Positions 40,425 to 58,441 of a stretch of 64,000 nt of DNA are shown here, piece after piece (positions within the stretch are counted from its first letter, which is position 1; every line of letters starts with the position of its first letter). The notes beneath the pieces are model-generated. The model saw only the letters and a program-made list of their open reading frames with translations, made no database searches and was not told the DNA's origin. Both the position numbers and the translations under genes were made by a program. This DNA is from a virus: IMG/VR virus record IMGVR_UViG_3300045988_054045; one strand, given 5' to 3'.

Positions 40425-40448
40425 AGCACACATCTAAGTATGTGTGCT
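40425..40448 (+). other. hairpin between module f and tRNA-Thr
   Basis: AGCACACAT-ctaagt-ATGTGTGCT. Confidence 0.4.
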
Positions 40449-40453
40449 AATTT

Positions 40454-40526
40454 GCCTCCGTAGCTCAATAGGCAGAGCAACTCACTTGTAATGAGAAGGT
40501 TGTAGGTTCGATTCCTATCGGAGGCT
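40454..40526 (+). tRNA. tRNA-Thr(UGU)
   Basis: GCCTCCG/CGGAGGC. Loop CTTGTAA. Confidence 0.85.
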
Positions 40527-40533
40527 CAAAATT

Positions 40534-40572
40534 AGTCCTATTTGTTAGCAATAACAGTAGGACTTATTCTTT
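40534..40572 (+). terminator. intrinsic terminator candidate
   Basis: AGTCCTA...TAGGACT followed by TATTCTTTC. Confidence 0.5.
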
Positions 40573-40642
40573 CTAAATAGCAAGATTCTCAGTTAGTACT
40601 ACAAAGATTAGCATTTGCAAATGTTATTATGTAAAATGAATT

Positions 40643-41020
40643 ATGAGTAGCTTTAAAGACGGATTAAGGAGAAGTGGTCAGAGTGTACTTGATGCAAGGG
40701 CGCAGAACTTGTATGAAATGACAAAAATTGAAGAGGAACGATTCATCCAAGAATGTAAGATGAAAGTTCTTCGTATCAAGAATGAGTTAAACAAGCACAG
40801 AGACCTATCTGTAAAATCCACTACTTCGTTGGAAGTTGGTAATGGCTTTGACCCTAAGGCTTGGGTTGCTAAGAGACATCAATTGGAACGTGACTTACGA
40901 GTTGCTAACATTGAATATGCTCTTGCACTTAAAGTTGATGGTGAAGAGTTCCCAGCTGACGAAACTGAGGAAATGATTAATGTAGCAGAAGTGCTAGAAG
41001 ACGATGCTAAATTGAAGTAA
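40643..41020 (+). CDS. hypothetical protein (125 aa)
   Basis: ORF track; first gene of the vWA/PurA-like operon. Confidence 0.55.
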   Translation: MSSFKDGLRRSGQSVLDARAQNLYEMTKIEEERFIQECKMKVLRIKNELNKHRDLSVKSTTSLEVGNGFDPKAWVAKRHQLERDLRVANIEYALALKVDGEEFPADETEEMINVAEVLEDDAKLK

Positions 41021-41022
41021 TT

Positions 41023-41955
41023 ATGGGAAGTGGAAGTTATTCCTTTGCAGCTTATTCTGCATTATCTACCGATAGAGGGTATGCAACCAAGTCAGCTGAT
41101 GCTGTCTTTACGAATCACACTCTATCAGCAAAGTCAGACATTAAATTGTCTAACGTAAATGCAAGAAACTATAACACACAGGTTAAACCAGAAATGATTA
41201 ACACTGGTGTTAGGGAAAGTAGAGATAGCAACGAACATCCTGAAACTACTCCGATTATCATTGCTCTTGATGTTACTGGTTCAATGCGTAGAACACCCCA
41301 TGAAATGATTAAGGATAACTTCCCTAAACTCATGGATGCTCTAATGCAACTGGGAGTCAAAGACCCGCAGCTGTTATTTATGGCTGTTGGCGACCATGAG
41401 TATGATAGGTATCCTATTCAAGTTGGACAATTTGAATCTGATACTGAGAAGATTGTAAACTCTCTTGAAGAGTTTGTACTCGAAGGTGGTGGAGGTGGAA
41501 ATAGTGGTGAGAGCTACTTATTGGCTCATATAATTGCTGGCTATCACACTGAAACAGACTCATGGTTTAAAAGACACAAGAAGGGTTATCTATTCACCAT
41601 TGGTGATGAACCCAACTTGCACGGCATCAGTGGACGTGCTTTGGAAGATTTCTTAGGCTATCAACACCCTGCTAATCCTATTAGCGAGGAAGAGGCTGTC
41701 AAGAAAGCTCAAGAGCAATATAACGTCTATCATATTCATGTTACTAATGGTAGCTATGGTACAAGAATTGCTCCAGGTTGGAAGAATCTACTTGGACAGA
41801 ATGTACTTACTTGTGATTCACACAATGTTCACAACGTAATTGCTGAAGCCATTAAGCAACACGAAGACCTCACTGGAGTACCCTATGAAGCAGAAGCAGT
41901 AGTGGATGCCCCAACGACCAGTGCAGGTGAAGAAAGTGGAACTTATACCTATTAA
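41023..41955 (+). CDS. vWA domain protein (TerY-like)
   Basis: MIDAS IIALDVTGSM, later FTIGDEPN. Confidence 0.7.
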   Translation: MGSGSYSFAAYSALSTDRGYATKSADAVFTNHTLSAKSDIKLSNVNARNYNTQVKPEMINTGVRESRDSNEHPETTPIIIALDVTGSMRRTPHEMIKDNFPKLMDALMQLGVKDPQLLFMAVGDHEYDRYPIQVGQFESDTEKIVNSLEEFVLEGGGGGNSGESYLLAHIIAGYHTETDSWFKRHKKGYLFTIGDEPNLHGISGRALEDFLGYQHPANPISEEEAVKKAQEQYNVYHIHVTNGSYGTRIAPGWKNLLGQNVLTCDSHNVHNVIAEAIKQHEDLTGVPYEAEAVVDAPTTSAGEESGTYTY

Positions 41956-41961
41956 GAAAAG

Positions 41962-43068
41962 ATGAATGAAATTGTATTAGGCTCGTTCTTTGGTGACGAG
42001 GGTAAAGGGCAAACCGTCCATAATTTATGTAAGGCACATCCTAAAGAAGAAACAATAGTTATTCGATTCAGTGGCGGACATCAAGTTGGTCATACTGTAA
42101 GGCATGGTAAACTTGAACACACGTTTAGTAATTATGGTAGTGGAACTTTACTTGGCATACCAACATACTGGTCTAAATACTGTACTGTAGACCCTATTAC
42201 TACTATGGGAGAATTGGTAGACTTAAATAAGCTCGGAGTCTATCCAGAGATTATCTACCATCCACTCTGCGAGGTTGTTACTCCCTTTGATGTTATTAAT
42301 CAATGGAATAATGAGGAGAACCTTAAACATGGTACTGTAGGCACAGGATTCAAATCTGCTCTCGATAGAGTAGCCGCTGGTTATCATATTACTGTTCGAG
42401 ATTGTGCTAATATCATGGTTCTAAGAGCCAAGATTGCATCACTTATTAAGAACTACTATGATTTCAGTTCCAGCCTTCCAATGTATAATATTGATGATTG
42501 GTGTGTTAGAGTGCATGAGTACTTCAAATCTGTAACAATATATGACGAGAATATTCTTACTCGTTATAAATACAAGGTCTTTGAGGGTTCACAAGGTATA
42601 TTACTAGACCAGAGATTTGGTATAATGCCTTATTGTACTCCAAGTAACACTACTTGTCAAAATGCTATGGAAATTATTAACAGGATAAAGCAAGTATCTA
42701 AGAATCACTTAGATAGAATGACGGAAGAGATAACAGACCATGTGTATGTTATCAGACCATATATTACCAGACATGGTAATGGTCCAATTCCTACTTCTAA
42801 ACCTGTTAGAGCTGTAGATGACCCTAATAATCAGTTCAATGAGTTCCAAAAGACTCTTAGGGCTGTGGAGTTCGATGTTAAATTATTCGAACACGCATTA
42901 TTAGTAGATTCTACTTTCATCCCAAACCATTATACACACAGGAGGATGTTAGTTATCACCCATAAGGATGAAATTACATCACAGTTCAACGATGAACTAC
43001 TTTCTGGTAATTGGGAAGGACAATTTAGTGGCATGAATTTATCTTACTATGATGAACTCATGGTATAG
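41962..43068 (+). CDS. short adenylosuccinate synthetase family protein (PurA/PurZ-like)
   Basis: P-loop GSFFGDEGKGQ, RFSGGHQVGHT, GTVGTGFKS. 368 aa against about 430 for PurA. Confidence 0.7.
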   Translation: MNEIVLGSFFGDEGKGQTVHNLCKAHPKEETIVIRFSGGHQVGHTVRHGKLEHTFSNYGSGTLLGIPTYWSKYCTVDPITTMGELVDLNKLGVYPEIIYHPLCEVVTPFDVINQWNNEENLKHGTVGTGFKSALDRVAAGYHITVRDCANIMVLRAKIASLIKNYYDFSSSLPMYNIDDWCVRVHEYFKSVTIYDENILTRYKYKVFEGSQGILLDQRFGIMPYCTPSNTTCQNAMEIINRIKQVSKNHLDRMTEEITDHVYVIRPYITRHGNGPIPTSKPVRAVDDPNNQFNEFQKTLRAVEFDVKLFEHALLVDSTFIPNHYTHRRMLVITHKDEITSQFNDELLSGNWEGQFSGMNLSYYDELMV

Positions 43069-43078
43069 AATTATTGTA

Positions 43079-43173
43079 AGACGACTCACAGCAAAGAAAA
43101 TATTATGACTTTAAAATAGTGAACCCCTCTGCTGCCCATTGCGGAGGTTAAAGAGTTAGTGGGAAGGTCGTCT
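43079..43173 (+). other. stem-closed leader cassette
   Basis: AGACGACT-CACAGCAAA...GGTCGTCT-GTTCCAT-tRNA. Confidence 0.5.
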
Positions 43174-43180
43174 GTTCCAT

Positions 43181-43252
43181 TGGGCTATAGTGTAATGGTT
43201 AGCACACAACACTTTGACTGTTGTAGTCTAGGTTCGAATCCTGGTAGCCCAA
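43181..43252 (+). tRNA. tRNA-Gln(UUG)
   Basis: TGGGCTA/TAGCCCA. Loop CTTTGAC. Confidence 0.85.
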
Positions 43253-43269
43253 CATAAAGATTAAATCTT

Positions 43270-43572
43270 ATGAAGGCAATGAAGGATAAGAGAAAATTCG
43301 GAGGAGCATCTCCAGTATCTAAGAATCGTAACTGTAAGAAATTCGGATATAGTTATGATAAAGAGGTAAGGAGAATCTGGCGAATTGAGGCAAGACAGTT
43401 AGCTCATAAAATACTAATGCACCTACCTGTTAGTAGAGAGGAAATTCAAGCAGCATGGAGCAATCCATATACTGATAGCTCTGTGTTAGGTGTTCCTTAT
43501 ATATGGGACGGAGAAGGTTACTACGATAGATGGGTAGAGCAGGTGTATAAAAAACTAAACAACGTGATATGA
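43270..43572 (+). CDS. hypothetical basic protein (100 aa)
   Basis: ORF track. Confidence 0.55.
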   Translation: MKAMKDKRKFGGASPVSKNRNCKKFGYSYDKEVRRIWRIEARQLAHKILMHLPVSREEIQAAWSNPYTDSSVLGVPYIWDGEGYYDRWVEQVYKKLNNVI

Positions 43573-43742
43573 TTTACACAAGAGTAATTCTAGTATTGCT
43601 AATTATACTAATTTTGGTATATTATGCTATGATTGTTGCTCACCTTTCTGGTGTTATTAATCTTACTGAGAGAAAGATAACTTTTGGTAAGTTATGTATT
43701 CCGTTTTATTACTGGATACACCAAGAAGGTGAAAATGTTTAA
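43569..43742 (+). CDS. small membrane protein (57 aa)
   Basis: ATGA overlap. Hydrophobic VILVLLIILILVYYAMIVA segment. Not in the track. Confidence 0.45.
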   Translation: MIYTRVILVLLIILILVYYAMIVAHLSGVINLTERKITFGKLCIPFYYWIHQEGENV

Positions 43743-43762
43743 TGTTAAATGAGTAGAAGAAA

Positions 43763-44986
43763 ATGAGTCAACCTAAAGTTAAGAAAAGTACAATCTTTGC
43801 TATCTTGGCAGGAGTAATTGTAGTCGTGTTAGTTTGCCTATCTGGAGCACTCTTTGAGGATGCAGATAAGTCTAAGAACTATGTGTGTCAAATGCCTGTA
43901 ACAGGTGAGTATGTCGTTTGGACTGATGGTGGTCTACAATGGCAAGGTTTGGGTAATAAACACGAGTATTTCAAAACCTCCCAAGTAGAGTTTTCAGGTC
44001 TAGAAGAGGTTAGTGAGGGTAACTATGTAGCATCAGGTGCTAATCCTGCAGCAGCATTAACCTTCAATGATAAGGGTAGAGGCTTTATTATAGGCTCTTT
44101 CCGAGTTGTTATGCCTAATGATGATTCTAATATGAAGAAAATTCAGCAGGACTTTGGTTCTGAAAAGGCATTGATAGCTAATCTAATTAAACCTACTTTA
44201 TATAAGGTTGTAACTTCTTGTGGTCCTCTAATGTCTTCACTAGAGTCTGTATCTGAGACAAGAACAGACTTGATTGCCTATATTACTGACCAGCTTAATA
44301 ATGGAGTGTATAAGACTACTGTAATTCGTGATTCAGTAACGAATGAAATTACTGGAGAAAAGGAGTTGAGAGCAAAGGCACAGATTGTGGCTGATACTAA
44401 CTCTCCGAGCGGTTATAAACGTCAGGAAACATCACCATTTAGTCAGTACGGCATTACTTGTGGCTTGGTATCTATCTTAGACATTAAGTATGATGCTGCT
44501 ACTCAATCTCAAATTGATGCTCAGAAGCAAGCTAACTTGGCTGTAATTACTTCTAAGACTAAGTCTTTGGAAGCTATTCAAAGAACTGTTCAGATTACTG
44601 AAGAGGGTAGAGCAGCAGCCGAGAGAGCTAAATGGGAGCAAGAGAAAGAGAAGGCAGTAGCAGTTACTAAGGCACAGCAAGAGTTTGAAGTAGCAGAACT
44701 TGAAGCTAAGAAAGCTAAACAAGTGGCTTTAAAGGTTCAAGCAGAAGGTGAAGCTAAGGCAGCAGCAAATAGAGCATTGGTTTCAGCAGGTTTAACTCCT
44801 GCCGAAAGAGCTGAATGGGATTATAAAACAGCTGTCGGTGTAGCACAAGCTCTAGCTGAATCTAAAGTATCATGGGTTCCATCAGTAATGTTTGGAGGAA
44901 ATGGTTCAAGTAATTCAGCTATGGATGCCGTAGGTTTGAAGATGTTATTGGACATTACTAAGTCTTTTGATAAGACAAGTAAATAA
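43763..44986 (+). CDS. SPFH/band-7-like membrane protein
   Basis: N-terminal TM segment, globular core, then a long A/E/K coiled coil (AERAKWEQEKEKAVAVTKAQQEFEVAELEAKKAK). Confidence 0.5.
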   Translation: MSQPKVKKSTIFAILAGVIVVVLVCLSGALFEDADKSKNYVCQMPVTGEYVVWTDGGLQWQGLGNKHEYFKTSQVEFSGLEEVSEGNYVASGANPAAALTFNDKGRGFIIGSFRVVMPNDDSNMKKIQQDFGSEKALIANLIKPTLYKVVTSCGPLMSSLESVSETRTDLIAYITDQLNNGVYKTTVIRDSVTNEITGEKELRAKAQIVADTNSPSGYKRQETSPFSQYGITCGLVSILDIKYDAATQSQIDAQKQANLAVITSKTKSLEAIQRTVQITEEGRAAAERAKWEQEKEKAVAVTKAQQEFEVAELEAKKAKQVALKVQAEGEAKAAANRALVSAGLTPAERAEWDYKTAVGVAQALAESKVSWVPSVMFGGNGSSNSAMDAVGLKMLLDITKSFDKTSK

Positions 44987-45074
44987 TAAAACATAGGTTG
45001 TCGGACTAGTGGGCAACCTTCCGTAATCAGTCGGACGTTGGGAGCTTATAGCCCTACGATAGTGTGGCTAAATC

Positions 45075-45149
45075 GGACCTATAGCTCAGTCTGGTCAGAG
45101 CAGCTGACTCATAATCAGAAGGTCGGGGGTTCAAAGCCCTCTAGGTCCA
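45075..45149 (+). tRNA. tRNA-Met or Ile2 (CAU)
   Basis: GGACCTA/TAGGTCC. Loop CTCATAA. Confidence 0.8.
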
Positions 45150-45211
45150 CATCTGTTTATCGGAAGATAGATAGTATAGATTGGTACAGCCTAGGACAAT
45201 GTATTAATCTA

Positions 45212-45284
45212 TGGGAGTTAGAGCAGTGGTCAGCTCGCTGGGTGCATAGCCCAGAGGTCGTCAGTTCGAATCTGGCATTCCCAA
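45212..45284 (+). tRNA. tRNA(CAU) with G33
   Basis: TGGGAGT/ATTCCCA. Stem CTGGG/CCCAG, loop TGCATAG. Confidence 0.6.
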
Positions 45285-45362
45285 CAAAGGGCTAAATCTG
45301 AGTAGCTAACAGACTATGGGGTGTTATGCCTTGCCCTTTACCTATAACTAAAAATAGAGCTT

Positions 45363-45734
45363 ATGAAACATTTATTACTAATTCTAATGTTTATTCCATT
45401 ATTCTTATATGGGCAGCACAATGTTACTGCAACATATTATCATGCTGGACCAAAGCATGGTTTATCATGGTATACAGCTAGTGGAAATAAAATTAGTATT
45501 AAGGAACTAAATGCTAAAAAGTTAAGATGGGTAGCCCTATCACATGACTTATTAAAGCATTACAACTACGGTGATACTATCACAGTAATCTCTGATAATC
45601 CTAAACTCAGGGGTAAATGGGTAGTTATGGATAAGATGCACAAAAGACATAGAAATAGGATAGATTTCTTAACCCCTAGTGGAAACACATTAGGGATGTT
45701 ACGACCTACTAAGGTAAAGATAAAGAAACAATAA
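45363..45734 (+). CDS. secreted 3D-domain (RlpA/MltA-like) protein
   Basis: Signal peptide. TATYYHAG...YTASGNK...WVALSHD...GDTITV...VVMDKM...IDFL pattern. Confidence 0.6.
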   Translation: MKHLLLILMFIPLFLYGQHNVTATYYHAGPKHGLSWYTASGNKISIKELNAKKLRWVALSHDLLKHYNYGDTITVISDNPKLRGKWVVMDKMHKRHRNRIDFLTPSGNTLGMLRPTKVKIKKQ

Positions 45735-45736
45735 TT

Positions 45737-45817
45737 GGGGTAGTGGCGGAATGGTAGACGCGCTGGTCTTAGGAACCAGTACCTTCGGGTGTGTGAGTTC
45801 GAGTCTCACCTACCCTA
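45737..45817 (+). tRNA. tRNA-Leu(UAG), type II
   Basis: GGGGTAG/CTACCCT. Loop CTTAGGA. 13-nt variable arm. Confidence 0.85.
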
Positions 45818-45840
45818 CAAACTTTTAAACAAACAGGAAT

Positions 45841-45996
45841 ATGAAAGAGATTAAAGACTTTTTTGAAGAAATTGAGAAGCTGGAAATAGCACAAGGTGTC
45901 ATCGACATTAATGAAGCTAAAAGACTAGTGTCTGAGGCTTATGTAGCAGGTATAAACTTTCAAGCCAACCAAACTAAACAAGGAGGTAAGAAATGA
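45841..45996 (+). CDS. hypothetical protein (51 aa)
   Basis: ATGA overlap with the next gene. Not in the track. Confidence 0.45.
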   Translation: MKEIKDFFEEIEKLEIAQGVIDINEAKRLVSEAYVAGINFQANQTKQGGKK

Positions 45997-46199
45997 AAGT
46001 AGTTGCTATGTTACTAATGCTAGTAGGACTATGTTCATGCGTTAATAGAGGACCAGTTGCAACTATAACTACAGAGACTGGTATTCCAATGCGTGTAACT
46101 GAGTTTACATATAAGGGACACTCTTATATATGGTTCTCTAAATCATCTGGACAATCTGGTATAGTACACAACCCAGACTGCCGTTGCAATAAGAAATAA
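45993..46199 (+). CDS. small secreted or lipoprotein-like protein (68 aa)
   Basis: MKVVAMLLMLVGLCSC signal with Cys residues. Confidence 0.5.
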   Translation: MKVVAMLLMLVGLCSCVNRGPVATITTETGIPMRVTEFTYKGHSYIWFSKSSGQSGIVHNPDCRCNKK

Positions 46200-46329
46200 T
46201 CCACCACTAGTTAGTAAGGGTGAGAAAATTACTTAGAGGCTGTTGATGCTTATTAGACGTGATAGGCTACAATTACAGTTGCGGTGAAAAATTGATAAGA
46301 ATTGCTAACACTTATCAGGCGGATTTATC

Positions 46330-46356
46330 AGAGTGTAGTTAATTCTACACTCTTTA
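46330..46356 (+). terminator. intrinsic terminator candidate
   Basis: AGAGTGTAG-ttaatt-CTACACTCT followed by TT. Confidence 0.5.
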
Positions 46357-46357
46357 A

Positions 46358-46432
46358 GGCGACATAGCTCATTTTGGTTAGAGCGTGGGAGTCATAACCC
46401 CAAGGTGGTTGGTTCGAATCCAACTGTCGCCA
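46358..46432 (+). tRNA. tRNA(CAU), initiator-like anticodon stem
   Basis: GGCGACA/TGTCGCC. Stem TGGGA/CCCCA with three G-C pairs, loop GTCATAA. Confidence 0.7.
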
Positions 46433-46452
46433 CACATCTTAATTTAATATGT

Positions 46453-47685
46453 ATGAGTGATAAAGGCTTATTGTTTAAAAAGAGAAAAAATAATCACGGA
46501 AGCCATAATAGATGTAGTCAAGGAAGTGGCTTTCCAAGACGAGATATGGATAAATTCCCTGGAACTCATTTAGGAATGAAACTGAGGTATCAGAAAGCAT
46601 CAGTAGGTCGTCTTATTAAGGGATGGAACATTAACCGTGGTTATCTAAGAACAAACAGAATAACTGGCTTTATTGACAAATTTATAGGAAAACCCTATAA
46701 TGATTTAGTCAAAGCATTCTATGTTCTTATTAAGGACTTGAGAAATAGTCATAAGGAAGTGGGTCTTGCAGACCTTGAGTGGCATTTTGAACAGTTTAGA
46801 TATAGAAGATGGAGAGGTGATTATTATGTAGACGATGATGGCTTAGTTCAAGTTGTTAAACCAGAACTAGATAGAAAACAGACTAGTCATATCAATAAGC
46901 AACAAGTAGCATACAATAAGAAAGTTAAGATTCCCGATTTTGGTAGAGTATCTGTACCAAGAAAGGTGGATTCTAGTAAAACTAGATGTTGGAATAAATA
47001 TGGCTTTCCAGACCGTGAGTTTATTCATTATGAGAAATGTCAATACCATGCTCCAAGATTCTTAGGTAATTATTGGTGTGATATGGATGGTAAGATGTTA
47101 TTTTTACCTGTTTATCATGTTCCAGGTACTTACGAGTACGCTAAATATTGGACGGATACTCATGGAGTTCCTAAACCTAGAGCAGGTAGGTATTACTACG
47201 GCACTTATCCTAAGAAATGGGATAATAGTGGATATTGTGATAAGTTTACAGACAAGTATAGACCAGGCACTGATGAATATAAGTGGGCGCAAGGTATAGA
47301 GAATGGCTGGGTAATTCCTATTATTCCATTTAGTAAGAAAGAGTTCTATGGTCTTAGATATGCTATGTATATGAGAATGCAACATAGTAAGAGAGTACTC
47401 CTTCCTAACACAGAAGAGTTAGAGAGATGTAAGGCTGATATAAGAACTCAACAAGAGACATTAGCCAATACAGAGAACCCAGACAGCTATTGGTATGGTA
47501 AGACAGAACTAGTTCAGGGTCGACTAGAGGAAGCTAAACAAAGACTTGAAAGAACACCTAATATGGCATACTTTGAAGTAGGATATGGTCAGCTATTTCC
47601 TATGGTTAAAAGGTATGACTATGAGAAAGCATTAAGAATCTATGAGCAGGAGCAAAAAGAAGCCGATTTGGAAAGACAAGAGTAA
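46453..47685 (+). CDS. hypothetical protein (410 aa)
   Basis: Long ORF. Start moved out of the tRNA to ATG 46453. Confidence 0.65.
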   Translation: MSDKGLLFKKRKNNHGSHNRCSQGSGFPRRDMDKFPGTHLGMKLRYQKASVGRLIKGWNINRGYLRTNRITGFIDKFIGKPYNDLVKAFYVLIKDLRNSHKEVGLADLEWHFEQFRYRRWRGDYYVDDDGLVQVVKPELDRKQTSHINKQQVAYNKKVKIPDFGRVSVPRKVDSSKTRCWNKYGFPDREFIHYEKCQYHAPRFLGNYWCDMDGKMLFLPVYHVPGTYEYAKYWTDTHGVPKPRAGRYYYGTYPKKWDNSGYCDKFTDKYRPGTDEYKWAQGIENGWVIPIIPFSKKEFYGLRYAMYMRMQHSKRVLLPNTEELERCKADIRTQQETLANTENPDSYWYGKTELVQGRLEEAKQRLERTPNMAYFEVGYGQLFPMVKRYDYEKALRIYEQEQKEADLERQE

Positions 47686-47896
47686 CCATGTATGGTATAA
47701 CAGAATTGTCAGAAGAGTTCAAAGAATGCAAGTAAAGCAGATAGCACAGCTTAATGATATTTTAGAATACGAAATCTCTCAACCAAATGAGTTGGTGAAT
47801 GATTGGGATATTTGTGATTGGAAGTTTGATTATAGACATCCATTCTGGAAACAATTCCATACTCCAGCTGAGTTGAAAAGATTTTGTTGTAAGTAG
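47642..47896 (+). CDS. hypothetical basic protein (84 aa)
   Basis: ORF track. Confidence 0.45.
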   Translation: MSRSKKKPIWKDKSNHVWYNRIVRRVQRMQVKQIAQLNDILEYEISQPNELVNDWDICDWKFDYRHPFWKQFHTPAELKRFCCK

Positions 47897-48151
47897 CTCC
47901 CAATTCCAAATCAAAGGAGTTTAAATATTAGGTTTGGCGATGACAACTAAGCGAGTTGAGCGTATGTAATAAGACGTGCTCTGAAGTACAAGGAGTGGGG
48001 TGGGTGCAGAATACCTCTTTAGAGTACCTTAACGGTACTCAATCACTGCTTCAGTATAACTAAGAGGTATATATCGGATGGTAGAATTTAGCGGCTGAAA
48101 TATGCGTAAGTCTTGAGGATATGATATGTAAGTTGCAACCCTCTTAGTCAT

Positions 48152-48237
48152 GGCTCGATGGTGGAATTGGTAGACACGTCAGGTTTAAGCCCTGATGCTC
48201 AGTAATGGGCGTGTGGGTTCGAGTCCCACTCGGGCTA
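48152..48237 (+). tRNA. tRNA-Leu(UAA), type II
   Basis: GGCTCGA/TCGGGCT. Loop TTTAAGC. Long variable arm. Confidence 0.8.
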
Positions 48238-48278
48238 CTACCCTTGAATTTACTCTTAATCCTTAAATTACACTTAGT

Positions 48279-48509
48279 ATGAATATCTTTGGTAACACAT
48301 CAACAGGGTTTAGTAAGGAGATAGACAGTGCAATGTCTACTTTTAAGAGTACTATTACGAAACTTAAAGCTACCGCTGAGAAAGCAGCAGCGACTAAAGT
48401 TGAAAAGCAGGAAGAAATCAAAAAGCTGGAAGTAGAATGTACAGCTTTAGATGGAGTTTCTACTAAAGCCAATAACTTAGCTTCCAAGTTAGAGGCATTA
48501 TTTGAATGA
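48279..48509 (+). CDS. coiled-coil protein (76 aa)
   Basis: ORF track. Confidence 0.5.
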   Translation: MNIFGNTSTGFSKEIDSAMSTFKSTITKLKATAEKAAATKVEKQEEIKKLEVECTALDGVSTKANNLASKLEALFE

Positions 48510-48919
48510 TTATGAAGGTTGAAAATTTGATGGAACATCCCATTGACCTATCTACTATTAAGGAGTGTAATAGCTTCTCAGAGTGGGTTGGCGATGATAT
48601 TTCTAAGGCATTCTATTTAGGTTTTATGCGACATGAGTTTGCTGACCAAATAGAGGAAATTACTAATAGAGAGGATGGTACAGGAATTGCATTGCTTAAG
48701 AGTATTGATGGAGCTTCTATAGAAGCAAAACCTTACCTTAAGGAATTAGCCAGATTAATGGAACCTTACTTGCAAAGTCCAGAAGGGTTTGTGGTATTAG
48801 ATATGGTTAACGATGTTCTTGGGAAGGTAGTTCCGAAGAAAGAAGGTGACATCTATAAGATTGCTTATATATTAGGAATCTACACAGACTATCTGTATAA
48901 CTGCAAGGCGGAAGCATGA
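48506..48919 (+). CDS. hypothetical protein (137 aa)
   Basis: ATGA overlaps on both sides. Confidence 0.6.
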   Translation: MIMKVENLMEHPIDLSTIKECNSFSEWVGDDISKAFYLGFMRHEFADQIEEITNREDGTGIALLKSIDGASIEAKPYLKELARLMEPYLQSPEGFVVLDMVNDVLGKVVPKKEGDIYKIAYILGIYTDYLYNCKAEA

Positions 48920-49326
48920 GTACATATAGAGTATATACTGATGGAGCATATTCAAGTGCTCGTAATCAAGGTGGTATTGGATTTGTTATCCTTAAGGATG
49001 ATAAAGAAGTAGCTAGATATTCTAAGATGTACAAGAACAGTACAAACCAAAGGATGGAGCAAATGGCAGCTATAGTTGCCCTTGAATCTATTACAACACC
49101 TTCAGAAGTTACCATAGTTTCTGATTCTCAGTATGTGGTCTGCACATATACTAAGAATTGGAAGAGAAAGGCGAATCTGGATTTGTGGAAGAGATTTGAT
49201 GCAGCAATTGCTTTCCATACTAAGGTTGAGTTTGAGTGGACTAAAGGACACGCAGACGACCAATATAACAAGATTTGTGATAAGCTAGCACAAGAAGCTA
49301 GTAGGACTATAGAGATTACTGATTAA
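48916..49326 (+). CDS. rnhA: ribonuclease HI
   Basis: VYTDGA...NQRMEQMAAIVALE...IVSDSQYV...WTKGHADDQYNKICDKLA (DEDD layout). Confidence 0.85.
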   Translation: MSTYRVYTDGAYSSARNQGGIGFVILKDDKEVARYSKMYKNSTNQRMEQMAAIVALESITTPSEVTIVSDSQYVVCTYTKNWKRKANLDLWKRFDAAIAFHTKVEFEWTKGHADDQYNKICDKLAQEASRTIEITD

Positions 49327-49347
49327 TATATTTGTAAATTCTTCTAT

Positions 49348-49479
49348 ATGAAATACAAGAAAATGGTAGCTAACTTAGAAGCAGCTAAGAGATGGTGGGA
49401 TGCTCAGCCTGAATCATTCAAGAAAGCAACTACACGTCCTGGCTCAGTTAAATGCAAATCTGTTAATAGAGGTAAATAA
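49348..49479 (+). CDS. hypothetical protein (43 aa)
   Basis: Small ORF not in the track. Confidence 0.35.
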   Translation: MKYKKMVANLEAAKRWWDAQPESFKKATTRPGSVKCKSVNRGK

Positions 49480-49596
49480 CCACTTCGAGTTTAAGGTAAA
49501 GTAGGACTTGCGCATACCTTCATATCGTAGGTATTAAAACCTTTCTACATTGTAGATAAACCTATCGCGGAGAGGACAGTGGTGACTCTCCAACTT

Positions 49597-49668
49597 GACC
49601 CTATAGCTTAGTAGGTAGAGCTGCGGACTCTTAATCCGTAGACCAGGGTTCGAATCCCTGTGGGGTCA
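49597..49668 (+). tRNA. tRNA-Lys(CUU)
   Basis: GACCCTA/TGGGGTC. Loop CTCTTAA. Confidence 0.85.
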
Positions 49669-49708
49669 CAGTAAAAGTTGAAGTAATAAAAGAGAAGTAA
49701 TCCATGTT

Positions 49709-49746
49709 ATGCCATTTGCTCGTGAGAGTAGATGGCATTTTTATTT
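49709..49746 (+). terminator. intrinsic terminator
   Basis: ATGCCAT...ATGGCAT followed by TTTTTATTT. Confidence 0.65.
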
Positions 49747-49818
49747 GTCCCTATAGTTCAACGGATAGAACGAGAGTTTCCTAAACTCTAGATGAAGGTT
49801 CGATTCCTTCTGGGGATA
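49747..49818 (+). tRNA. tRNA-Arg(CCU)
   Basis: GTCCCTA/TGGGGAT. Loop TTCCTAA. Confidence 0.8.
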
Positions 49819-49838
49819 CTAATTTAACTTATTAGATT

Positions 49839-50168
49839 ATGAGAGTATATGATGTTATAAAGACTGCAGAGGATACCTATATAAGTGAGACTAGTAGACT
49901 TATTTATCCAGGTATGTGTTGGTGCTTAAAAGTATCAGCAGTCAAGGGGTTTGACTTTAAGGAGAAGAACAGAAAGGGACATCCATCTTACAAAGACTTG
50001 GTTGATAATATCCCTGAATTTAATCCAGAGTTCCTTAAAGCTACTGAGGAGGTAAAGATGGCTGGTTTAGATTTCTGGTGGGAACACCATGATACAGAAT
50101 CAAGGCTAAGAGCCTTCCAAGTATTAAAAGACATTTACAAGGATAATCCTAAAGAATTTGAATATTAA
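49839..50168 (+). CDS. hypothetical protein (109 aa)
   Basis: ORF track. Confidence 0.55.
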   Translation: MRVYDVIKTAEDTYISETSRLIYPGMCWCLKVSAVKGFDFKEKNRKGHPSYKDLVDNIPEFNPEFLKATEEVKMAGLDFWWEHHDTESRLRAFQVLKDIYKDNPKEFEY

Positions 50169-50171
50169 TAT

Positions 50172-50592
50172 AATAGAGGGGATGTAGGGTTAGTAGTACC
50201 CATCATTTAAAGAGTTGCGAGCGGAAGTTATGGTATATCCTTAGGTCACGAGTAGCTATCGTGGTGTTGACAAGCGTGAAGGTATAGAACTTACTGGTCC
50301 TTCCGTATAACCGCAGGGAGGCACAAGCATTAATCTCGGAGAGTAGTATTCCTAGTCTGAAATGACGAGGGTTCCGATACGTTGCTCAATGTGATATTAA
50401 GTGTCGGAGCCAGTTATTGATAAGTTTCAACAGTACAAGCGGAACCTGGAATTAAGATTGGGAGGGTACGTGATACCCTTAGCTGTTAGTAGGAGAACAA
50501 AAGTCGGCTAATGTGTACGTTAAGTCACTGCACATACGTTCAACGTCAATAACCGCCCTTAGAGCATTTGGTGTAACAACACACCCTCTATT
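50172..50592 (+). ncRNA. 421-nt stem-closed structured RNA candidate
   Basis: No ORF. AATAGAGGG (50172-80) pairs with CCCTCTATT (50584-92). Visibly more GC-rich. Lies 4 nt before tRNA-Arg(ACG). Confidence 0.4.
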
Positions 50593-50596
50593 CTTT

Positions 50597-50668
50597 AGTC
50601 CTATAGTTTAACGGATAGAATACCATACTACGGATATGGAGGTCTCAGTTCGATTCTGGGTAGGACTA
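50597..50668 (+). tRNA. tRNA-Arg(ACG)
   Basis: AGTCCTA/TAGGACT. Loop CTACGGA. Confidence 0.85.
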
Positions 50669-50687
50669 CAAACTTAAACAATTAAGT

Positions 50688-51086: not shown

Positions 51087-51701
51087 ATGGCAATTAACTT
51101 GCAAAAAGGTGGACGCATTGACCTTTCTAAGGAGTCCACAGCTAGTGTGTTTAGAATTGGTTTGGGCTGGGATGCAGCACAACCTGGTAAAGAATTTGAC
51201 TTGGATGCTATGGCTATTCTGCTTGGTGCTGATGGTAAAGCTGTAAGTGACGATGCAATGGCTCTGTTTGGGCAGTTGGATGGTCCTGAAGCTATAGCTG
51301 CTACTGGCTGTATCCATCATTCAGGTGATAACCGTACTGGCGCTGGTGATGGTGATGATGAAACTATCACTATCGACACTGCTAAGGTTCCTGCCAATGT
51401 TCAGGAAATTGTAGTTCTTGTCAATATCCATGATGCCAAGAATCGTCAGCAGAATTTTGGTATGGTAAAGAATGCCAAGGTTAATCTGTATGAAGGCGCA
51501 GAAGGTAACAACGTTCTTGCCAAGTATGACCTGGAAGAAGATGCTTCTATGGATAGAGCATTGGTATTCTGCAGACTGTATCGCAAGGATGGAGCATGGA
51601 AGTTCCAAGCTGTGAACGAAGGTAAGGGTAACTATCAGAATGTGTTACTGTGTGACATTCTGTCCAGTTATGGTATCAACGCAGGTCCAAACAATCTGTA
51701 A
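51087..51701 (+). CDS. terD: TerD-family protein
   Basis: MAINLQKGGRIDLSKE start and the HHSGDNRTGAGDGDDE Ca-binding signature. Confidence 0.9.
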   Translation: MAINLQKGGRIDLSKESTASVFRIGLGWDAAQPGKEFDLDAMAILLGADGKAVSDDAMALFGQLDGPEAIAATGCIHHSGDNRTGAGDGDDETITIDTAKVPANVQEIVVLVNIHDAKNRQQNFGMVKNAKVNLYEGAEGNNVLAKYDLEEDASMDRALVFCRLYRKDGAWKFQAVNEGKGNYQNVLLCDILSSYGINAGPNNL

Positions 51702-51704
51702 GCT

Positions 51705-52352
51705 ATGATAAACTTATCTAAGGGAGGCAGAGTTAATCTGTCTAAGGATGATAACGGTAATAAGTTATCTAAAGTATTCTTTGGAGCAAACTGGGGAGCT
51801 ATCAAATCTGGTGGCTTCTTAGGTTTTGGTGGAGGTACTGAGGCTGTTGACCTTGATGCTTCTGTGGTTCTTATGGATGCTAACAAGCATAAGCTTGAAA
51901 CTGTTTACTTTGGTCATAAAGACTCTAGTGACAGAGCAATCCATCACTCTGGTGATGATTTAGTAGGTGATACTAACGGAGACGACGGAATGGATAATGA
52001 AACTATTTCAGTAGAACTGGATAGAATCAGACCTGAAGTTGAGTACGTTGCATTTATCCTCAACTCATATCGTCACCAAAGATTCGATAAGATTCCTTAT
52101 ATGGGATTGAGAATCTATACGACAACTGACGGACGTCCTGTAACCCGTCCAAACTCCAATCCTAACGTATTGGCTAAGTATAACTTGGACAATGATAGTA
52201 AAGACCCTGAAACTACATTCGTTGGTCGTGAAGCTATTGTTCTAGGCTATGCTTATCGTAAGGACGGTGAGTGGAAGTTCAAGGCTCTTGGTAACACTGG
52301 CTCTTGGCAATCTATAGGTGAAATCGAAAGGGTATTACCCAATCTTATTTAA
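51705..52352 (+). CDS. TerD-family protein, second copy
   Basis: MINLSKGGRVNLSKD start and HHSGDDLVGDTNGDDGMDNE. Confidence 0.85.
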   Translation: MINLSKGGRVNLSKDDNGNKLSKVFFGANWGAIKSGGFLGFGGGTEAVDLDASVVLMDANKHKLETVYFGHKDSSDRAIHHSGDDLVGDTNGDDGMDNETISVELDRIRPEVEYVAFILNSYRHQRFDKIPYMGLRIYTTTDGRPVTRPNSNPNVLAKYNLDNDSKDPETTFVGREAIVLGYAYRKDGEWKFKALGNTGSWQSIGEIERVLPNLI

Positions 52353-52370
52353 TTATTAAAACTTACAATT

Positions 52371-52724
52371 ATGTGTAAAGTAAATGTAGAAGAACTCCGC
52401 GAAGAAATTATGGCGGATGGTGTAGTGACAAAGGAAGAAGTTGAAATGCTGTGGGAGAAGAAAGACTCTCAAGAAGGTGATACTACTTCTGAGTTTGATG
52501 CATTCTTTGCTGAAGCTGTAATGGCTTGGCTGTTGGCTGACGGTGAAATCAGTGATGAAGAAGCTCAATATCTCATTGACAAAATCAATGAAGATGATGA
52601 TATTGACGACGCTGAAGATGAACTGCTGGAAAGCATCGCCGAGTGGGGAAGTGAAGAAGGACATAACGTTCCCGTTATCCTTATTGAAGCATTCCCTGAT
52701 TACTTCGAAGAAGACGAAGAGTAA
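52371..52724 (+). CDS. highly acidic protein (117 aa), TerB-like candidate
   Basis: D/E-rich. MADGVVTKEEVEMLW and LLADGEISDEEAQYL repeats resemble TerB-type helices. Confidence 0.35.
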   Translation: MCKVNVEELREEIMADGVVTKEEVEMLWEKKDSQEGDTTSEFDAFFAEAVMAWLLADGEISDEEAQYLIDKINEDDDIDDAEDELLESIAEWGSEEGHNVPVILIEAFPDYFEEDEE

Positions 52725-52778
52725 AAACTACACTGGTGGGCATCTTGTCCACCTTTTAATAATTAAATAACTTAAAAG

Positions 52779-55277
52779 ATGAATATAGAATTGTTAAAGG
52801 GCTTGACAGATGCTGAGGTTAATCATAGTAGAGATTGTCATGGCTCTAATGTATTAACTCCACCTAAAAGAGACCCTTGGTACATACTTTTCCTTGAGAA
52901 GTTCAAAGACCCCCTAATTCAAATATTGAGTGTCGCTGCAATTATTGCATTGGTGCTGGGAGTTATTAAGTCGGAATATTTAGAACCTATTGGTATTATA
53001 GCCGCTATCTTGTTAGCTGTAACTATAGGATTCTTAAATGAGTATAGTGCATCTAAGAAATTCGATGTACTTACTTCAAGTTCTGATGATACACTTGTCA
53101 AGGTAAGGAGAAATGGGATAGTAACCCAAGTAGCTCGAAAAGACTTAGTTGTTGATGATGTAGTGCTGTTAGAAGCTGGAGAAGAAATTCCTGCTGATAT
53201 TACAGCCTACGAATCTCATAACTTAAAGGTTAATGAGTCTGTTCTAACTGGAGAATCTAAGGCTGTTACTAAGCAACCTAAAGAGGAAGGTGAATTAAAT
53301 GCCACTTATCCCTCTTGGCTATTACTGAAAGGAACTATCGTTGAAGAAGGTTCTGTAGTAGGTGTGGTCAATGCAGTTGGAGATAATACGGCATTTGGAC
53401 AGACAGCACGTAAAGCTGCTGAAATTACTGACACAGAGACTCCTCTAAACAAGCAGCTCAATGGTCTTGCTGATTTAATCAATAAGATTGCATTTGGTGC
53501 TGCTGGATTCCTTATTCTTGCTTTATTAGTAAGGTACTTCTTTATAGAACAAGCTTATGTAGGACAAGACTGGATGCAGATTACTAATGACCTATTATCC
53601 TTCTTAATGATTGCAGTTGCACTAATAGTTGTAGCTGTGCCAGAAGGATTGCCTATGGCTGTAACACTAGCCCTTGCGTATTCAATGAAACGTATGTCTA
53701 AGGCGAATAATTTGGTCAGAAAGATGCACGCTTGTGAAACCTTAGGAGCAACTACTCTTATTCTTACCGATAAAACGGGCACTCTAACAGAGAATAAGAT
53801 GAAGGTTGTAAATGAGGTAATGCCTAATAGGGCATATATTACTATCAATGCTCTTGCCAATTCTACTGCATATGTAGATGGTGATAAGACCGTTGGTAAT
53901 CCTACAGAGGGTGCTATAATTAAGTATATGGATGCTGGGGACTTACTTGATGATATAAGGAGAGATAATACTCCTGTGTTCAGAATGGACTTCTCAAGTA
54001 AGACTAAGTTTATGATGTCCATTGTTAAACAAGGTGATGCCTTTATTTCGTTGGTAAAAGGTGCTCCCGAAGTTGTTCTTACCATGTGTAATGAAACAGT
54101 AGAAGGTGGCTTACCAAGCTGTGTTTCGGAGCAGAACAAAGGACGTAGAGTTATAGGCTTTGCTTATAAAGAATCTATGACCTTAGAGGATGCTCAGAAA
54201 CTGAATGGCTTTACTTATAATGGTTTCATGGCTATTGAAGACCCAATCCGTAAGGATGTTCCAGATGCAGTTAAAGCTGCAAAAGAAGCTGGTATTAAGG
54301 TTAAAATCATTACTGGAGATGATCCAGCCACAGCTACGGAGATAGCTAGGCAGGCAGGACTAAGTGATAACCCAAGAGCTTTATTAGGAGAAGAAGTAGA
54401 AGACAGAATGTCAATTACTACTTTGAATAATACTGATGTATATGCTCGTACTAAACCAGAGGATAAACAAACTCTGGTTAAAATGTATCAGAGTATAGGA
54501 GAGGTTGTTGCAATGACTGGTGATGGTACTAATGATGCTCCAGCTTTAAATCATGCCGAAGTAGGTATAGCCATGAATAATGGTACGGACGTAGCCAAAG
54601 AAGCTGCGGATATTATCCTACTCGACAATTCATTCCCATCTATCATCTTAGGTGTTAAGTGGGGAAGAAGTCTGTACAAGAATATACAGCACTTCATTCT
54701 GTTCCAATTAACAATCAATGTTGTAGCTATACTTATAGCTTGTGTTGGTCCGTTCATTGGTATAGACCTACCCTTCACTGTTACACAGATGTTGTGGGTT
54801 AATTTAATCATGGATACATTCGCTGCATTGGCTTTAGCAACTGAACCAGCTAACGATGCAGTTATGAAGGATAAACCAAGAAGTCCTAAAGCATTCATTA
54901 TCACTAAACCAATGTGGTGTGAAATCTTTGGAGTTGGTATTATATTCTTCGTATTCTTAGTCACTTTGCTCTATACTAAAGCAGTATCTCTAACAGAGTT
55001 CTTTACGATATTCGTATTGTTACAATGGTGGAATCTGTTTAATGCTAGAGTGTTCGGACAAAGAAGAAGTATCTTTGATGGCTTGCTAAAGAATCCTGCG
55101 TTTGCTGGAATTGCTTTAGTTATTCTCGTTGGTCAATTCTTAATCGTACAATATGGTGGTGCTATGTTCAGAACCGAACCTCTCTCTATGGAGACCTGGG
55201 GTTTGATTTTAGCTGGAACTTCCGTCGTTACGGTTGCTAGAGAGTTGATGTATCAAATAAGCAAAATTTTCAAATAG
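52779..55277 (+). CDS. P-type (type II) Ca2+-transporting ATPase
   Basis: DKTGTLT phosphorylation site. PEGLP in M4. TGDGTNDAPAL hinge. 832 aa with multiple TM segments. Confidence 0.9.
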   Translation: MNIELLKGLTDAEVNHSRDCHGSNVLTPPKRDPWYILFLEKFKDPLIQILSVAAIIALVLGVIKSEYLEPIGIIAAILLAVTIGFLNEYSASKKFDVLTSSSDDTLVKVRRNGIVTQVARKDLVVDDVVLLEAGEEIPADITAYESHNLKVNESVLTGESKAVTKQPKEEGELNATYPSWLLLKGTIVEEGSVVGVVNAVGDNTAFGQTARKAAEITDTETPLNKQLNGLADLINKIAFGAAGFLILALLVRYFFIEQAYVGQDWMQITNDLLSFLMIAVALIVVAVPEGLPMAVTLALAYSMKRMSKANNLVRKMHACETLGATTLILTDKTGTLTENKMKVVNEVMPNRAYITINALANSTAYVDGDKTVGNPTEGAIIKYMDAGDLLDDIRRDNTPVFRMDFSSKTKFMMSIVKQGDAFISLVKGAPEVVLTMCNETVEGGLPSCVSEQNKGRRVIGFAYKESMTLEDAQKLNGFTYNGFMAIEDPIRKDVPDAVKAAKEAGIKVKIITGDDPATATEIARQAGLSDNPRALLGEEVEDRMSITTLNNTDVYARTKPEDKQTLVKMYQSIGEVVAMTGDGTNDAPALNHAEVGIAMNNGTDVAKEAADIILLDNSFPSIILGVKWGRSLYKNIQHFILFQLTINVVAILIACVGPFIGIDLPFTVTQMLWVNLIMDTFAALALATEPANDAVMKDKPRSPKAFIITKPMWCEIFGVGIIFFVFLVTLLYTKAVSLTEFFTIFVLLQWWNLFNARVFGQRRSIFDGLLKNPAFAGIALVILVGQFLIVQYGGAMFRTEPLSMETWGLILAGTSVVTVARELMYQISKIFK

Positions 55278-55278
55278 T

Positions 55279-55671
55279 ATGGAATATTGGGTATTATACT
55301 TATGTAGTATCGCTGACTCAGTTCATACATTGTTAATGGTTCTTTCAATTGTTGGTTTAATTGTATCAGCTATCTTATTCTTCATGTCAGTATGTAGTTC
55401 ACAGTGCGATGTTTGCGGCACCAGAACTTGCGTGGCTAAAGGGGTAAAGAAGTCTGGTGTAAAGAGGAAACACTTTGTAATACCTACTGCAATAGCAGCG
55501 GTGTTATGCGTACTTACTCCCTCAACTAACCAATGCTATGCCATATTTGGCGTAGGTGCAACTTTACATTATGTAAATCATAGTGAAGAAATGCAGAAGA
55601 TACCTGACAATGCAATGAAAGCTGTCAACCGATATTTGGAGTCTCTGGCTCCCAACGACTCCATACAATAG
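55279..55671 (+). CDS. membrane protein (130 aa)
   Basis: Starts 2 nt after the ATPase stop and has hydrophobic helices. Confidence 0.55.
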   Translation: MEYWVLYLCSIADSVHTLLMVLSIVGLIVSAILFFMSVCSSQCDVCGTRTCVAKGVKKSGVKRKHFVIPTAIAAVLCVLTPSTNQCYAIFGVGATLHYVNHSEEMQKIPDNAMKAVNRYLESLAPNDSIQ

Positions 55672-55759
55672 TTATAGGGGTCAATTCTGTCTACATTAGT
55701 AGATGGGTTGACCCTTATTTTTTGTAGATGTATGGTAAAGTAACTGAACAAGTCAATAA

Positions 55760-57557: not shown

Positions 57558-57828
57558 GCTGACTGAATATCCTAAGTTCCTATATGAAGTATCTCTATAT
57601 AAGATATGGAAAGATAGGGCAGAGTGTGTAGGAAGTCAGTTCTATGCAGCTGATACACCTTTAACTATTAAGAAAGAAACTATTAGTAAAAAGGTGGAAG
57701 ATTATAGGTTAGTTAAGTTTATTACTTGGCTATCGGCACCTCTAGATTACTTGATGCAAAACAACTTTAAATTAGTTACTGATGAGAGTACTAGACGCAC
57801 AAGGAAATCCAGAACAAAAAGAGACTAA
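57511..57828 (+). CDS. hypothetical protein (105 aa)
   Basis: ORF track; 47-nt overlap with the upstream gene. Confidence 0.45.
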   Translation: MAKKSTQNVYSNKQYKLTEYPKFLYEVSLYKIWKDRAECVGSQFYAADTPLTIKKETISKKVEDYRLVKFITWLSAPLDYLMQNNFKLVTDESTRRTRKSRTKRD

Positions 57829-57853
57829 GCAAGGTGTTCAGACAGTGGATGCA

Positions 57854-58441
57854 ATGCCTACTATGCAATATACAGAGAAGAACATTGATGAGAGTAGACG
57901 TAAGTGTACCTTATCAAGTGTAATGGTTGAAATGCTAGTAAAGCAACTATCAGCTGAGCTGGCTAACCATAGTCTGTATAGAACCTTTGCTAATTACTTT
58001 GATGTAGAGGGATTACCCAAATTGGCTACCTACTGGCTCGGTAGGGCAGCTGAGGAATACCTTCACCATGAGTGGATTTATAAGTATTTAACTACTAATG
58101 ATGCTCTGTTCCAATATCCACCAGTTCCAGCTATCAAAGTGAACATAACTGACAGAGTTATGCCTTTTGCTGCTACTGTTGATAGGGAGATTGAAACTAC
58201 TATGAGTATCAATAAGATTGTAGACCAGGCTCAGAAAGAGGGTGATTGGGCTACATTCCAGTGGTTGAATGGAGAGGATGAAGAGGAAGGTAGACTTGTT
58301 AAAGAGCAAGTAGAAGAAGAGTCTATTAGTAGGACTATTCTGGATATGGCTAAAGAAGAAGGCTCATGGTTGCGTAAGCAATCCACTATCCTAGCTTTCT
58401 ATCGTAACCCCGATAGCTTGCAGCCATCTCGTAAAGCATAA
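57854..58441 (+). CDS. ferritin-like protein
   Basis: SAELANHSLYRTFANYF...GRAAEEYLHHEWIYKYL di-iron helix pattern. Start set at an internal ATG. Confidence 0.65.
   Translation: MPTMQYTEKNIDESRRKCTLSSVMVEMLVKQLSAELANHSLYRTFANYFDVEGLPKLATYWLGRAAEEYLHHEWIYKYLTTNDALFQYPPVPAIKVNITDRVMPFAATVDREIETTMSINKIVDQAQKEGDWATFQWLNGEDEEEGRLVKEQVEEESISRTILDMAKEEGSWLRKQSTILAFYRNPDSLQPSRKA

Follow-up and report, generated by a model that had tools for sequence, protein, structure and literature searches.

Recurrent linkage of TerD genes with a putative Ca2+ pump gene in phages of Bacteroidales

Introduction

The IMG/VR virus record IMGVR_UViG_3300045988_054045, of which a stretch of 64,000 nucleotides was analysed here (the window), derives from an uncultivated Bacteroidales phage with a genome of roughly 185 kb. 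Within the window, two genes for TerD-family proteins, TerD1 and TerD2, stand upstream of the gene for a P-type ATPase that appears from its sequence to be a PMCA-type Ca2+ pump. The same combination is found in related phages and, in varied gene orders, beside distant pumps of other viral lineages, and it is absent around the closest cellular pumps; the TerD-pump linkage is therefore recurrent and phage-specific. An original prediction, made from the sequence of the window, had described five consecutive plus-strand genes (for two TerD proteins, an acidic protein, a P-type Ca-ATPase and a membrane protein) as a calcium-handling module. All five open reading frames (ORFs) are present (Table 1), and what is conserved is TerD-TerD-pump rather than the full set of five. 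We give slightly more credence than doubt to the reading that this unit belongs to a phage-borne, Ter-like module for Ca2+ sensing and efflux.

For decades it has been unclear which natural role the widespread Ter (tellurite-resistance) proteins play, and the linkage provides a testable clue to it. An association of TerD, sometimes together with TerB-like or vWA-TerF-like proteins, with a Ca2+ exporter points to the sensing and efflux of divalent cations, probably Ca2+, and the TerD-TerD-pump unit constitutes a compact three-gene system with which Ter function can be probed.

The phage pump

The pump contains all five cation-ATPase Pfam domains, and its catalytic motifs are complete: TGES157, PEGLP288 (in M4), DKTGTLT331 and TGDGTNDAPAL580. 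Against the NCBIfam model for PMCA-type Ca2+-ATPases (TIGR01517, with a curated equivalog cutoff of 507 bits) it scores 652.6 bits; for the PMR1-type, SERCA-type, H+, Mg2+ and heavy-metal models it falls under each model's own cutoff, the runner-up being the PMR1-type model with 468 bits versus a cutoff of 798. Its closest solved relatives (plant ACA8, SPCA1, PMCA1/2 and Listeria LMCA1) are all Ca pumps. The residues of Ca site II are present, E289 in M4 and N675 and D679 in M6. Over the whole site region the pump has E289, N647, A650, N675, M678, D679 and Q749, and in a HMMER alignment its M5 NVVA, M6 NLIMD and M8 Q749 equal those of the plant PMCA ACA8. In SERCA/PMCA numbering, we take this pattern to be the single-site PMCA arrangement, in which site II alone is kept and the site I positions are substituted. 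Taken together, these comparisons support the assignment of the window protein as a PMCA-type Ca-ATPase. The original prediction had named a SERCA/PMCA-type Ca pump on the strength of the DKTGTLT, PEGLP and TGDGTNDAPAL motifs; all three are located in the 832-aa protein, the PMCA type is the one that fits, and the protein neither groups with non-Ca transporters nor has lost the Ca-site residues.

The Pfam domains span residues 6-824 of 832, and no calmodulin-binding autoinhibitory extension is found at either the N- or the C-terminus; bacterial PMCA-type members are likewise without one. (The idea that the shorter phage pump has lost a regulatory domain was rejected; there is no domain-sized difference between phage and bacterial pumps, and such difference as exists is distributed among short loops and arises in part from ORF start calling.) The nearest cellular pumps, almost all of them from Bacteroidales, are 43-52% identical to the window pump. 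Every one of ten other viral pumps tested also passes the TIGR01517 cutoff, with scores of 514-662 bits.

Two further observations concern pump genes in the databases. In two related phages, at locus L102 (8693-9819) and also at L103 (the same contigs as L047/L048), a 1,127-nt insert splits the pump gene inside the conserved TGDG|TND sequence. The exons, which lie in different frames, share more than 99.5% identity with the unbroken L079 pump, and the insert, which holds a free-standing 242-aa ORF (9046-9774), has the appearance of a group I intron that carries a homing endonuclease. In addition, most 'phage' tblastn matches to the pump are host contigs that stand under phage names in GenBank. 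The best match so labelled (L052, MT838269.1, 44%) appears to be a bacterial fragment with genes for RibF and a CPBP protease downstream of the pump, and many OR84xxxx 'Listeria/Enterococcus phage' records that match the pump resemble fragments of bacterial chromosomes. Such mislabelled records call for caution in database-based claims of phage-encoded pumps.

TerD1 and TerD2

Both TerD proteins pass the Pfam TerD model (PF02342, gathering threshold 25.3 bits), TerD1 with 193.9 bits and TerD2 with 102.2 bits. The solved TerD structures 3IBZ and 2KXT align with TerD1 at E values of about 1e-45, and the ATG at 51087 is favoured as its start over the ATG at 51060 because the former aligns with residue 1 of these structures. 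TerD proteins are known from structural work to bind Ca2+. When the loop motif GDN(R/L)TGxGDGDDE is used as a guide, the Ca loop of TerD1 is intact (GDNRTGAGDGDDE), and TerD2, which forms with L056_T2 and L107_T2 a paralog clade of its own, has an expanded acidic variant of it (GDDLVGDTNGDDGMDNE). The GDN/GDD signatures first noticed in the two proteins are thus real features of both, and the comparison supports the retention of putative Ca-binding loops.

The acidic protein and the membrane protein

The ORF between TerD2 and the pump encodes a protein of extreme acidity (41 D+E and 6 K+R per 117 residues), for which AlphaFold gives an all-helical model with a pLDDT (a per-residue confidence score) of 91; it consists of helix-loop-helix units of the type DGxI(D/S)xxE. 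An exhaustive phmmer search finds its homologs in 142 representative clusters; their consensus is a run of DGxIDxxExxxL units, and the best match of the family profile in the PDB is 2H5N (E 0.0018). Pfam TerB (PF05099) is matched at E <= 0.01 by 32 of 50 homologs (best E 7e-9), and DUF533 by 24 of the 50. Ten close homologs score 17-28 bits against TerB, whose gathering threshold is 24.4 bits, and two of these pass. Because the homologs straddle the threshold, the window copy misses TerB, and Foldseek finds no significant structural match, the likeness of this protein to TerB is graded as borderline. Of its earlier description as an acidic, TerB-like protein, the extreme acidity is borne out, and the TerB likeness comes by way of the homologs. 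By tblastn the acidic ORF is found in some subclades only; it is missing from the L079 cluster (n=15) and the L089 cluster (n=2).

The last ORF, which begins 2 nt past the pump stop, matches phrog_3878 (E 7e-13) and shows two hydrophobic segments by hydropathy, in agreement with what had been said of its location and nature. With tblastn it is found solely at loci where the pump is at least 72% identical, and judged by this distribution it is a clade-specific accessory.

A gene for a TerB-like protein can also accompany a cellular pump. In a Prevotellaceae metagenome-assembled genome (L187, 1660-2550), a 296-aa multi-repeat TerB-like protein is encoded 25 nt upstream of a chromosomal Ca pump; this is the one such case among 80 cellular loci.

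Conservation of the TerD-pump linkage

The unit TerD1-TerD2-pump is kept at 50 of 51 related viral loci, down to a pump identity of 60%. This is the portion of the proposed five-gene module that stands; the acidic and membrane ORFs, present in some subclades only, drop out of it. Three divergent loci that were reached through TerD1 homologs (L053, L055 and L057) have the order TerD-TerD-TerB-like-pump. A wider, alignment-based scan uncovered viral pumps at 32-47% identity, many of which adjoin TerD in varied orders. In some the pump comes first, as in L122, where it is followed by a 62-aa ORF, three TerD genes and a PspA-like gene, and in L121, where it is followed by genes for a vWA-TerF-like protein (E 7e-61), TerD and a PspA-like protein. 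In others the pump comes last: after three TerD genes in L124, after a TerD gene and, at some remove from it, a second TerD gene in L119, after two TerD genes and a gene for a CW_7 protein in L105, and in L220 at the end of the series PspA-like, TerD, TerD, two small ORFs, GroES, GroEL.

A survey of TerD-ATPase synteny in viral sequences, which the original prediction had proposed, brings out the contrast with cellular pumps. Of 19 viral pump clusters, 14 have TerD no more than 3 kb from the pump (75 of 81 contigs), versus none of 60 cellular clusters within 7 kb (0 of the 80 closest loci, mostly Bacteroidales, with 1.08 Mb scanned). The difference is significant when counted by cluster (Fisher p = 9e-12), contigs within a lineage not being independent samples. 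In a neighbour-joining tree the TerD-linked viral pumps fall into three groups: the window family, which is sister to Bacteroidales pumps; L105, which is nested within Bacteroidales pumps; and a deep group that is 33-38% identical to either of the others. Across these three lineages, which are 33-50% identical to each other, TerD is upstream of the pump in some and downstream in others. For the deep L122-type pump no cellular source was found, the matches listed comprising a second large phage clade and no named cellular protein.

In the subclade at 65% identity, an ORF resembling an acyl carrier protein, with a DSLD motif recognised by eye, was seen just upstream of the TerD pair (L021, 4150-4425).

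Transcription signals

A hairpin with a U-run follows the membrane ORF, and none of 200 shuffled sequences folds as well; it is a putative strong terminator that would close the unit after the membrane gene. A weaker hairpin sits between the TerB-like gene and the pump. GC-rich hairpins of differing sequence, most of them with a T-run, occupy the same gap in subclades of the window family and precede the pump in L119 and L124; at two loci that bear the TerB-like gene, L055 and L098, the pre-pump gap folds weakly. These features suggest that the pre-pump hairpin may act as an attenuator, which would lower expression of the pump versus that of the soluble proteins.

Comparison with known systems

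Both Ca-translocating P-type ATPases and TerD genes have been reported in gut phages by Chen et al. (Sci Adv 2026, PMC12880540), who describe the Jug phages and list, besides these, four phages of 159-197 kb, also with Ca pumps. The pump gene of the Jug phages shows high transcript levels and shares its transcript with a small ORF upstream of it (77-91 aa), described as 'without detectable homologs' (PMC12880540). The similarities to the window are evident: the Jug phages are gut phages predicted to infect Bacteroides/Phocaeicola, their PMCA-like pump is closest to Bacteroidaceae pumps, a small ORF lies directly upstream of the pump, and TerD genes are present in the genome. However, the window TerD1 and TerD2 directly precede the pump, whereas the Jug TerD genes are in separate operons, and the upstream ORF of the window is 117 aa long and has many TerB-like homologs, versus 77-91 aa in the Jug phages. 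Size (contigs of about 180-190 kb in the window family versus genomes of 360-402 kb) rules out that the window is itself from a Jug phage; it may belong among the 'smaller-sized phages (159-197 kbp)' of Chen et al. The earlier remark that no described phage operon linking TerD to a Ca pump was known to its author must accordingly be narrowed. Pumps in such phages, and TerD genes, are already published, and it is the linkage that appears to be undescribed: the literature search returned no association of TerD or TerB with a Ca pump, with an earlier mention in the Ter comparative genomics of Anantharaman and Aravind being possible. These findings refine the published account of phage Ca pumps in the gut, where such phages are abundant, in that at least the window family and a second abundant lineage carry putative Ca-binding partners of the pump; models of phage Ca2+ manipulation, and attempts at functional expression of the pump, should consider these Ter partners.

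The module also resembles canonical ter clusters, in which TerD paralogs and a TerB-like protein are encoded beside a polytopic membrane protein for cation transport; vWA-TerF-like and membrane-stress genes, too, accompany the phage module in some lineages. In canonical clusters sampled through mid-distance TerD homologs (L058, L059 and L221-L223), TerC is beside TerD, TerB is present in two, and TerB, vWA-TerF, AIM24 and ATP-grasp/PRTase biosynthetic genes occur in various combinations. The phage element differs in that it is viral and in that a P-type Ca pump stands in the TerC position. The window ORFs scanned include no TerC, nor do the called genes of L053, L055 and L057, and the flanks of the module at these three loci contain no ATP-grasp, PRTase, HAD or C-C lyase biosynthetic module. 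A third kind of partner is seen at L056 (6656-9189), a plasmid-like or integrative and conjugative element-like contig with ParA, PcfJ, SLT and Mrr, where a Na_Ca_ex (CaCA) antiporter gene divergently adjoins a pair of TerD1-type and TerD2-type genes that is followed by a gene for a PAS-domain protein. The membrane protein encoded next to TerD can thus be a P-type Ca pump, a CaCA antiporter or TerC, and this variety is the main argument for TerD acting jointly with an exporter of divalent cations.

As for the pump itself, bacterial PMCA-like pumps such as Listeria LMCA1 and those of Bacteroidales share its domain architecture, its Ca site II residues and its want of a calmodulin-binding tail; the Bacteroidales chromosomal pumps differ in that TerD is absent within 7 kb at 80 of the 80 closest cellular loci. 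A virus-encoded P-type Ca pump has also been described from Chlorella virus; this Ca2+-transporting ATPase is reported to be expressed during infection (Bonza et al. 2010, PMC3052600, as cited by Chen et al.). Unlike the window pump, it comes from a eukaryotic giant virus, and we know of no Ter association of the Chlorella virus enzyme.

Proposed function and its alternatives

The gene identities, the motifs and the recurrent, phage-specific linkage are observed; from them we infer a Ca2+ substrate, a direction of transport, a physical or regulatory coupling of Ter proteins and pump, and a benefit to the phage, as follows. By homology, the pump would spend ATP and export one Ca2+ per cycle from the cytoplasm of the infected Bacteroidales cell. 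The TerD paralogs would be soluble Ca2+-binding partners, joined in some subclades by the acidic TerB-like protein. Most likely, when cytosolic Ca2+ rises, the Ter proteins would sense or buffer it at the membrane and cooperate with the pump or control its activity; the weaker hairpin may keep the pump scarcer than the soluble proteins. The likely purpose would be to hold host cytosolic Ca2+ low during envelope perturbation, or to blunt Ca2+-triggered responses of the host. The original idea of a module for Ca homeostasis thus finds support for a core of TerD-TerD-(TerB-like)-pump and loses the window vWA protein and the clade-specific membrane ORF that had been attached to it.

Several observations weigh against this reading. 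Ca2+ transport by the pump, and contact between it and the Ter proteins, are predictions from sequence. The independent origins of the linkage number about three or four, which is small, and five of the 19 viral pump clusters, including L097, a member of the window family, are without an adjacent TerD. The TerD genes of the Jug phages are in operons apart from the pump and were read as stress-related, with no link to the pump drawn (PMC12880540). Sister clades do without the acidic and membrane ORFs. The window acidic protein has no match to Pfam TerB at E <= 1, only DUF533 being reached, at E 0.1, and a Foldseek search of the PDB with its model gives nothing better than E = 1.9. Finally, a terminator-like hairpin parts the soluble genes from the pump, which weighs on strict co-transcription.

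A bolder extension, which we regard as unlikely, holds that cation exporters have TerD and TerB-like proteins as subunits devoted to Ca2+ sensing and regulation, which would play towards PMCA-type pumps, in prokaryotes and viruses, the part of calmodulin. With them, large gut phages would cancel the Ca2+ influx signal that triggers abortive infection or membrane-stress responses. If so, the partners of these proteins could include TerC or a CaCA antiporter, and the Ter proteins would serve by nature in Ca2+ signalling and efflux, not in tellurite resistance. It is also conceivable, with a similarly low probability, that the module acts on a different divalent metal, with Mn2+ (by itself or together with Ca2+) the most plausible, through an SPCA/PMR1-like and TerC-like export that would serve the metalation of envelope proteins or detoxification, the TerD and TerB proteins being metal chaperones or buffers. 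TerC-family proteins are implicated in Mn2+ export, and the pump occupies the position of TerC in the sampled ter operons. Alx, according to the title of PMC10197570, is a Mn exporter. The PMR1-type model is the second best for the pump, SPCA1 is among its best solved relatives, and the window family retains a ferritin-like gene 2-3 kb downstream. However, with 468 bits the pump stays far under the PMR1-type cutoff, while the PMCA-type model is passed; the alternative TerD partner on L056 is an antiporter of the Ca type; and the Ca-loop motif is intact in TerD1, where Ca2+ would be bound if this protein behaves as TerD is known to do.

Another explanation agrees with the proposed Ca2+ sensing and efflux in mechanism and differs from it in purpose. 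Here the module would be mainly a superinfection-exclusion or anti-toxin device, guarding the infected or carrier cell against competing phages or bacteriocins that depolarise the membrane, with the pump correcting the ion leak; plasmid ter operons give resistance of this kind, against other phages and pore-forming colicins. The ter operon is implicated in phage inhibition and colicin resistance (PMC8123226), membrane-stress genes (SPFH and PspA-like) recur beside the module, and the linkage is confined to mobile elements and viruses and unseen at the sampled cellular pump loci. Against this, none of the five module proteins matches any PADLOC defence model. To our knowledge, moreover, no exclusion phenotype has been described for these phages, and we think such a purpose improbable. 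The genes might, alternatively, be functionally independent accessories that merely share a variable, host-derived region beside the tRNA block. That region is full of small unannotated ORFs, its neighbours vary between clades, the acidic and membrane ORFs are present at some loci and missing from others, a hairpin stands between the TerD/TerB genes and the pump, and the TerD and pump operons of the Jug phages are separate (Chen et al., PMC12880540). Yet the pairing recurs across lineages that are 33-50% identical, with different orders and intervening genes; it is absent at 80 of the 80 nearest cellular pump loci; and on L056 a non-homologous Ca exporter adjoins the same TerD pair. Independence of the genes is therefore disfavoured, and we hold it to be the least probable of the explanations considered.

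The window and neighbouring genes

The phage nature of the window is apparent from genes for a large terminase, a portal and a tail protein and from 36 tRNA genes. Its terminase is about 30% identical to those of crAss-like phages, to which there is a distant kinship, and the matches are from phages of Bacteroidota hosts. Related contigs are mostly about 175-192 kb in length, and megablast finds no near-identical GenBank phage.

Table 1. Coordinates of the module, its hairpins and the SPFH-like gene in the window
Feature	Coordinates	Strand	Basis
SPFH/Band_7-like gene, 407 aa	43763..44986	+	phmmer E 3e-105 to L053 6780-7982
TerD1, 204 aa, canonical TerD-family beta-sandwich	51087..51701	+	Pfam TerD E 2e-57
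TerD2, 215 aa, divergent TerD paralog	51705..52352	+	Pfam TerD E 3e-29
Acidic protein, 117 aa, all-helical, borderline TerB-like	52371..52724	+	homologs, profile match
Hairpin of 8 bp + UUUU, candidate attenuator or partial terminator	52735..52757	+	dG -12.3 kcal/mol, z -3.4
P-type ATPase, 832 aa, putative PMCA-type (P2B-like) Ca2+-translocating	52779..55277	+	TIGR01517, Pfam
Membrane protein, 130 aa, two hydrophobic segments, Cys cluster	55279..55671	+	phrog_3878, hydropathy
Hairpin + U-run, strong, intrinsic-terminator-like	55674..55724	+	dG -25.6 kcal/mol, z -6.6

Genes of the SPFH, PspA-like and vWA-TerF-like types recur near TerD-pump modules. The original prediction had pointed to an SPFH gene and to vWA proteins with a metal ion-dependent adhesion site (MIDAS) in the vicinity. 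The SPFH gene exists and is loosely associated: it is 6 kb upstream of TerD1 in the window and directly upstream of TerD1 in L053. The window copy has no direct match in Pfam and is recognised only through its homolog in L053, which is annotated as Band_7 (PF01145). The vWA protein of the window (28674-30437) did not hold up as a part of the module and was rejected as such, being Ro60/TROVE-like and 22 kb distant, beside the tRNA block; a genuine vWA-TerF-like gene is found within the module of another lineage, L121. The Ro60/TROVE-like gene, on the plus strand, matches DUF2828/DUF7788 and phrog_850 ('RNA-binding protein'), and its product is probably RNA-related. It is followed by a gene for a DUF7873 protein (30434-31225), and the two may form a pair for RNA quality control or repair.

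The 36 tRNA genes, all on the plus strand and including five tRNA-Met calls, lie among small ORFs at 31648-50669, directly upstream of the module. A plus-strand gene at 57782-58441, 2-3 kb downstream of the pump, encodes a ferritin-like protein; it is kept in the window family and is also present in L053, L055 and L057, which suggests a wider theme of metal homeostasis. An adenylosuccinate-synthetase-like gene at 41962-43068 (plus strand) matches phrog_1211, a family of PurZ-type synthetases, and similar genes are found near the module in L021 (9891-11075), L055 (1-972) and L124 (11053-12273). The recurrence of this gene hints that these phages may replace adenine by 2-aminoadenine in their DNA (a Z-genome).

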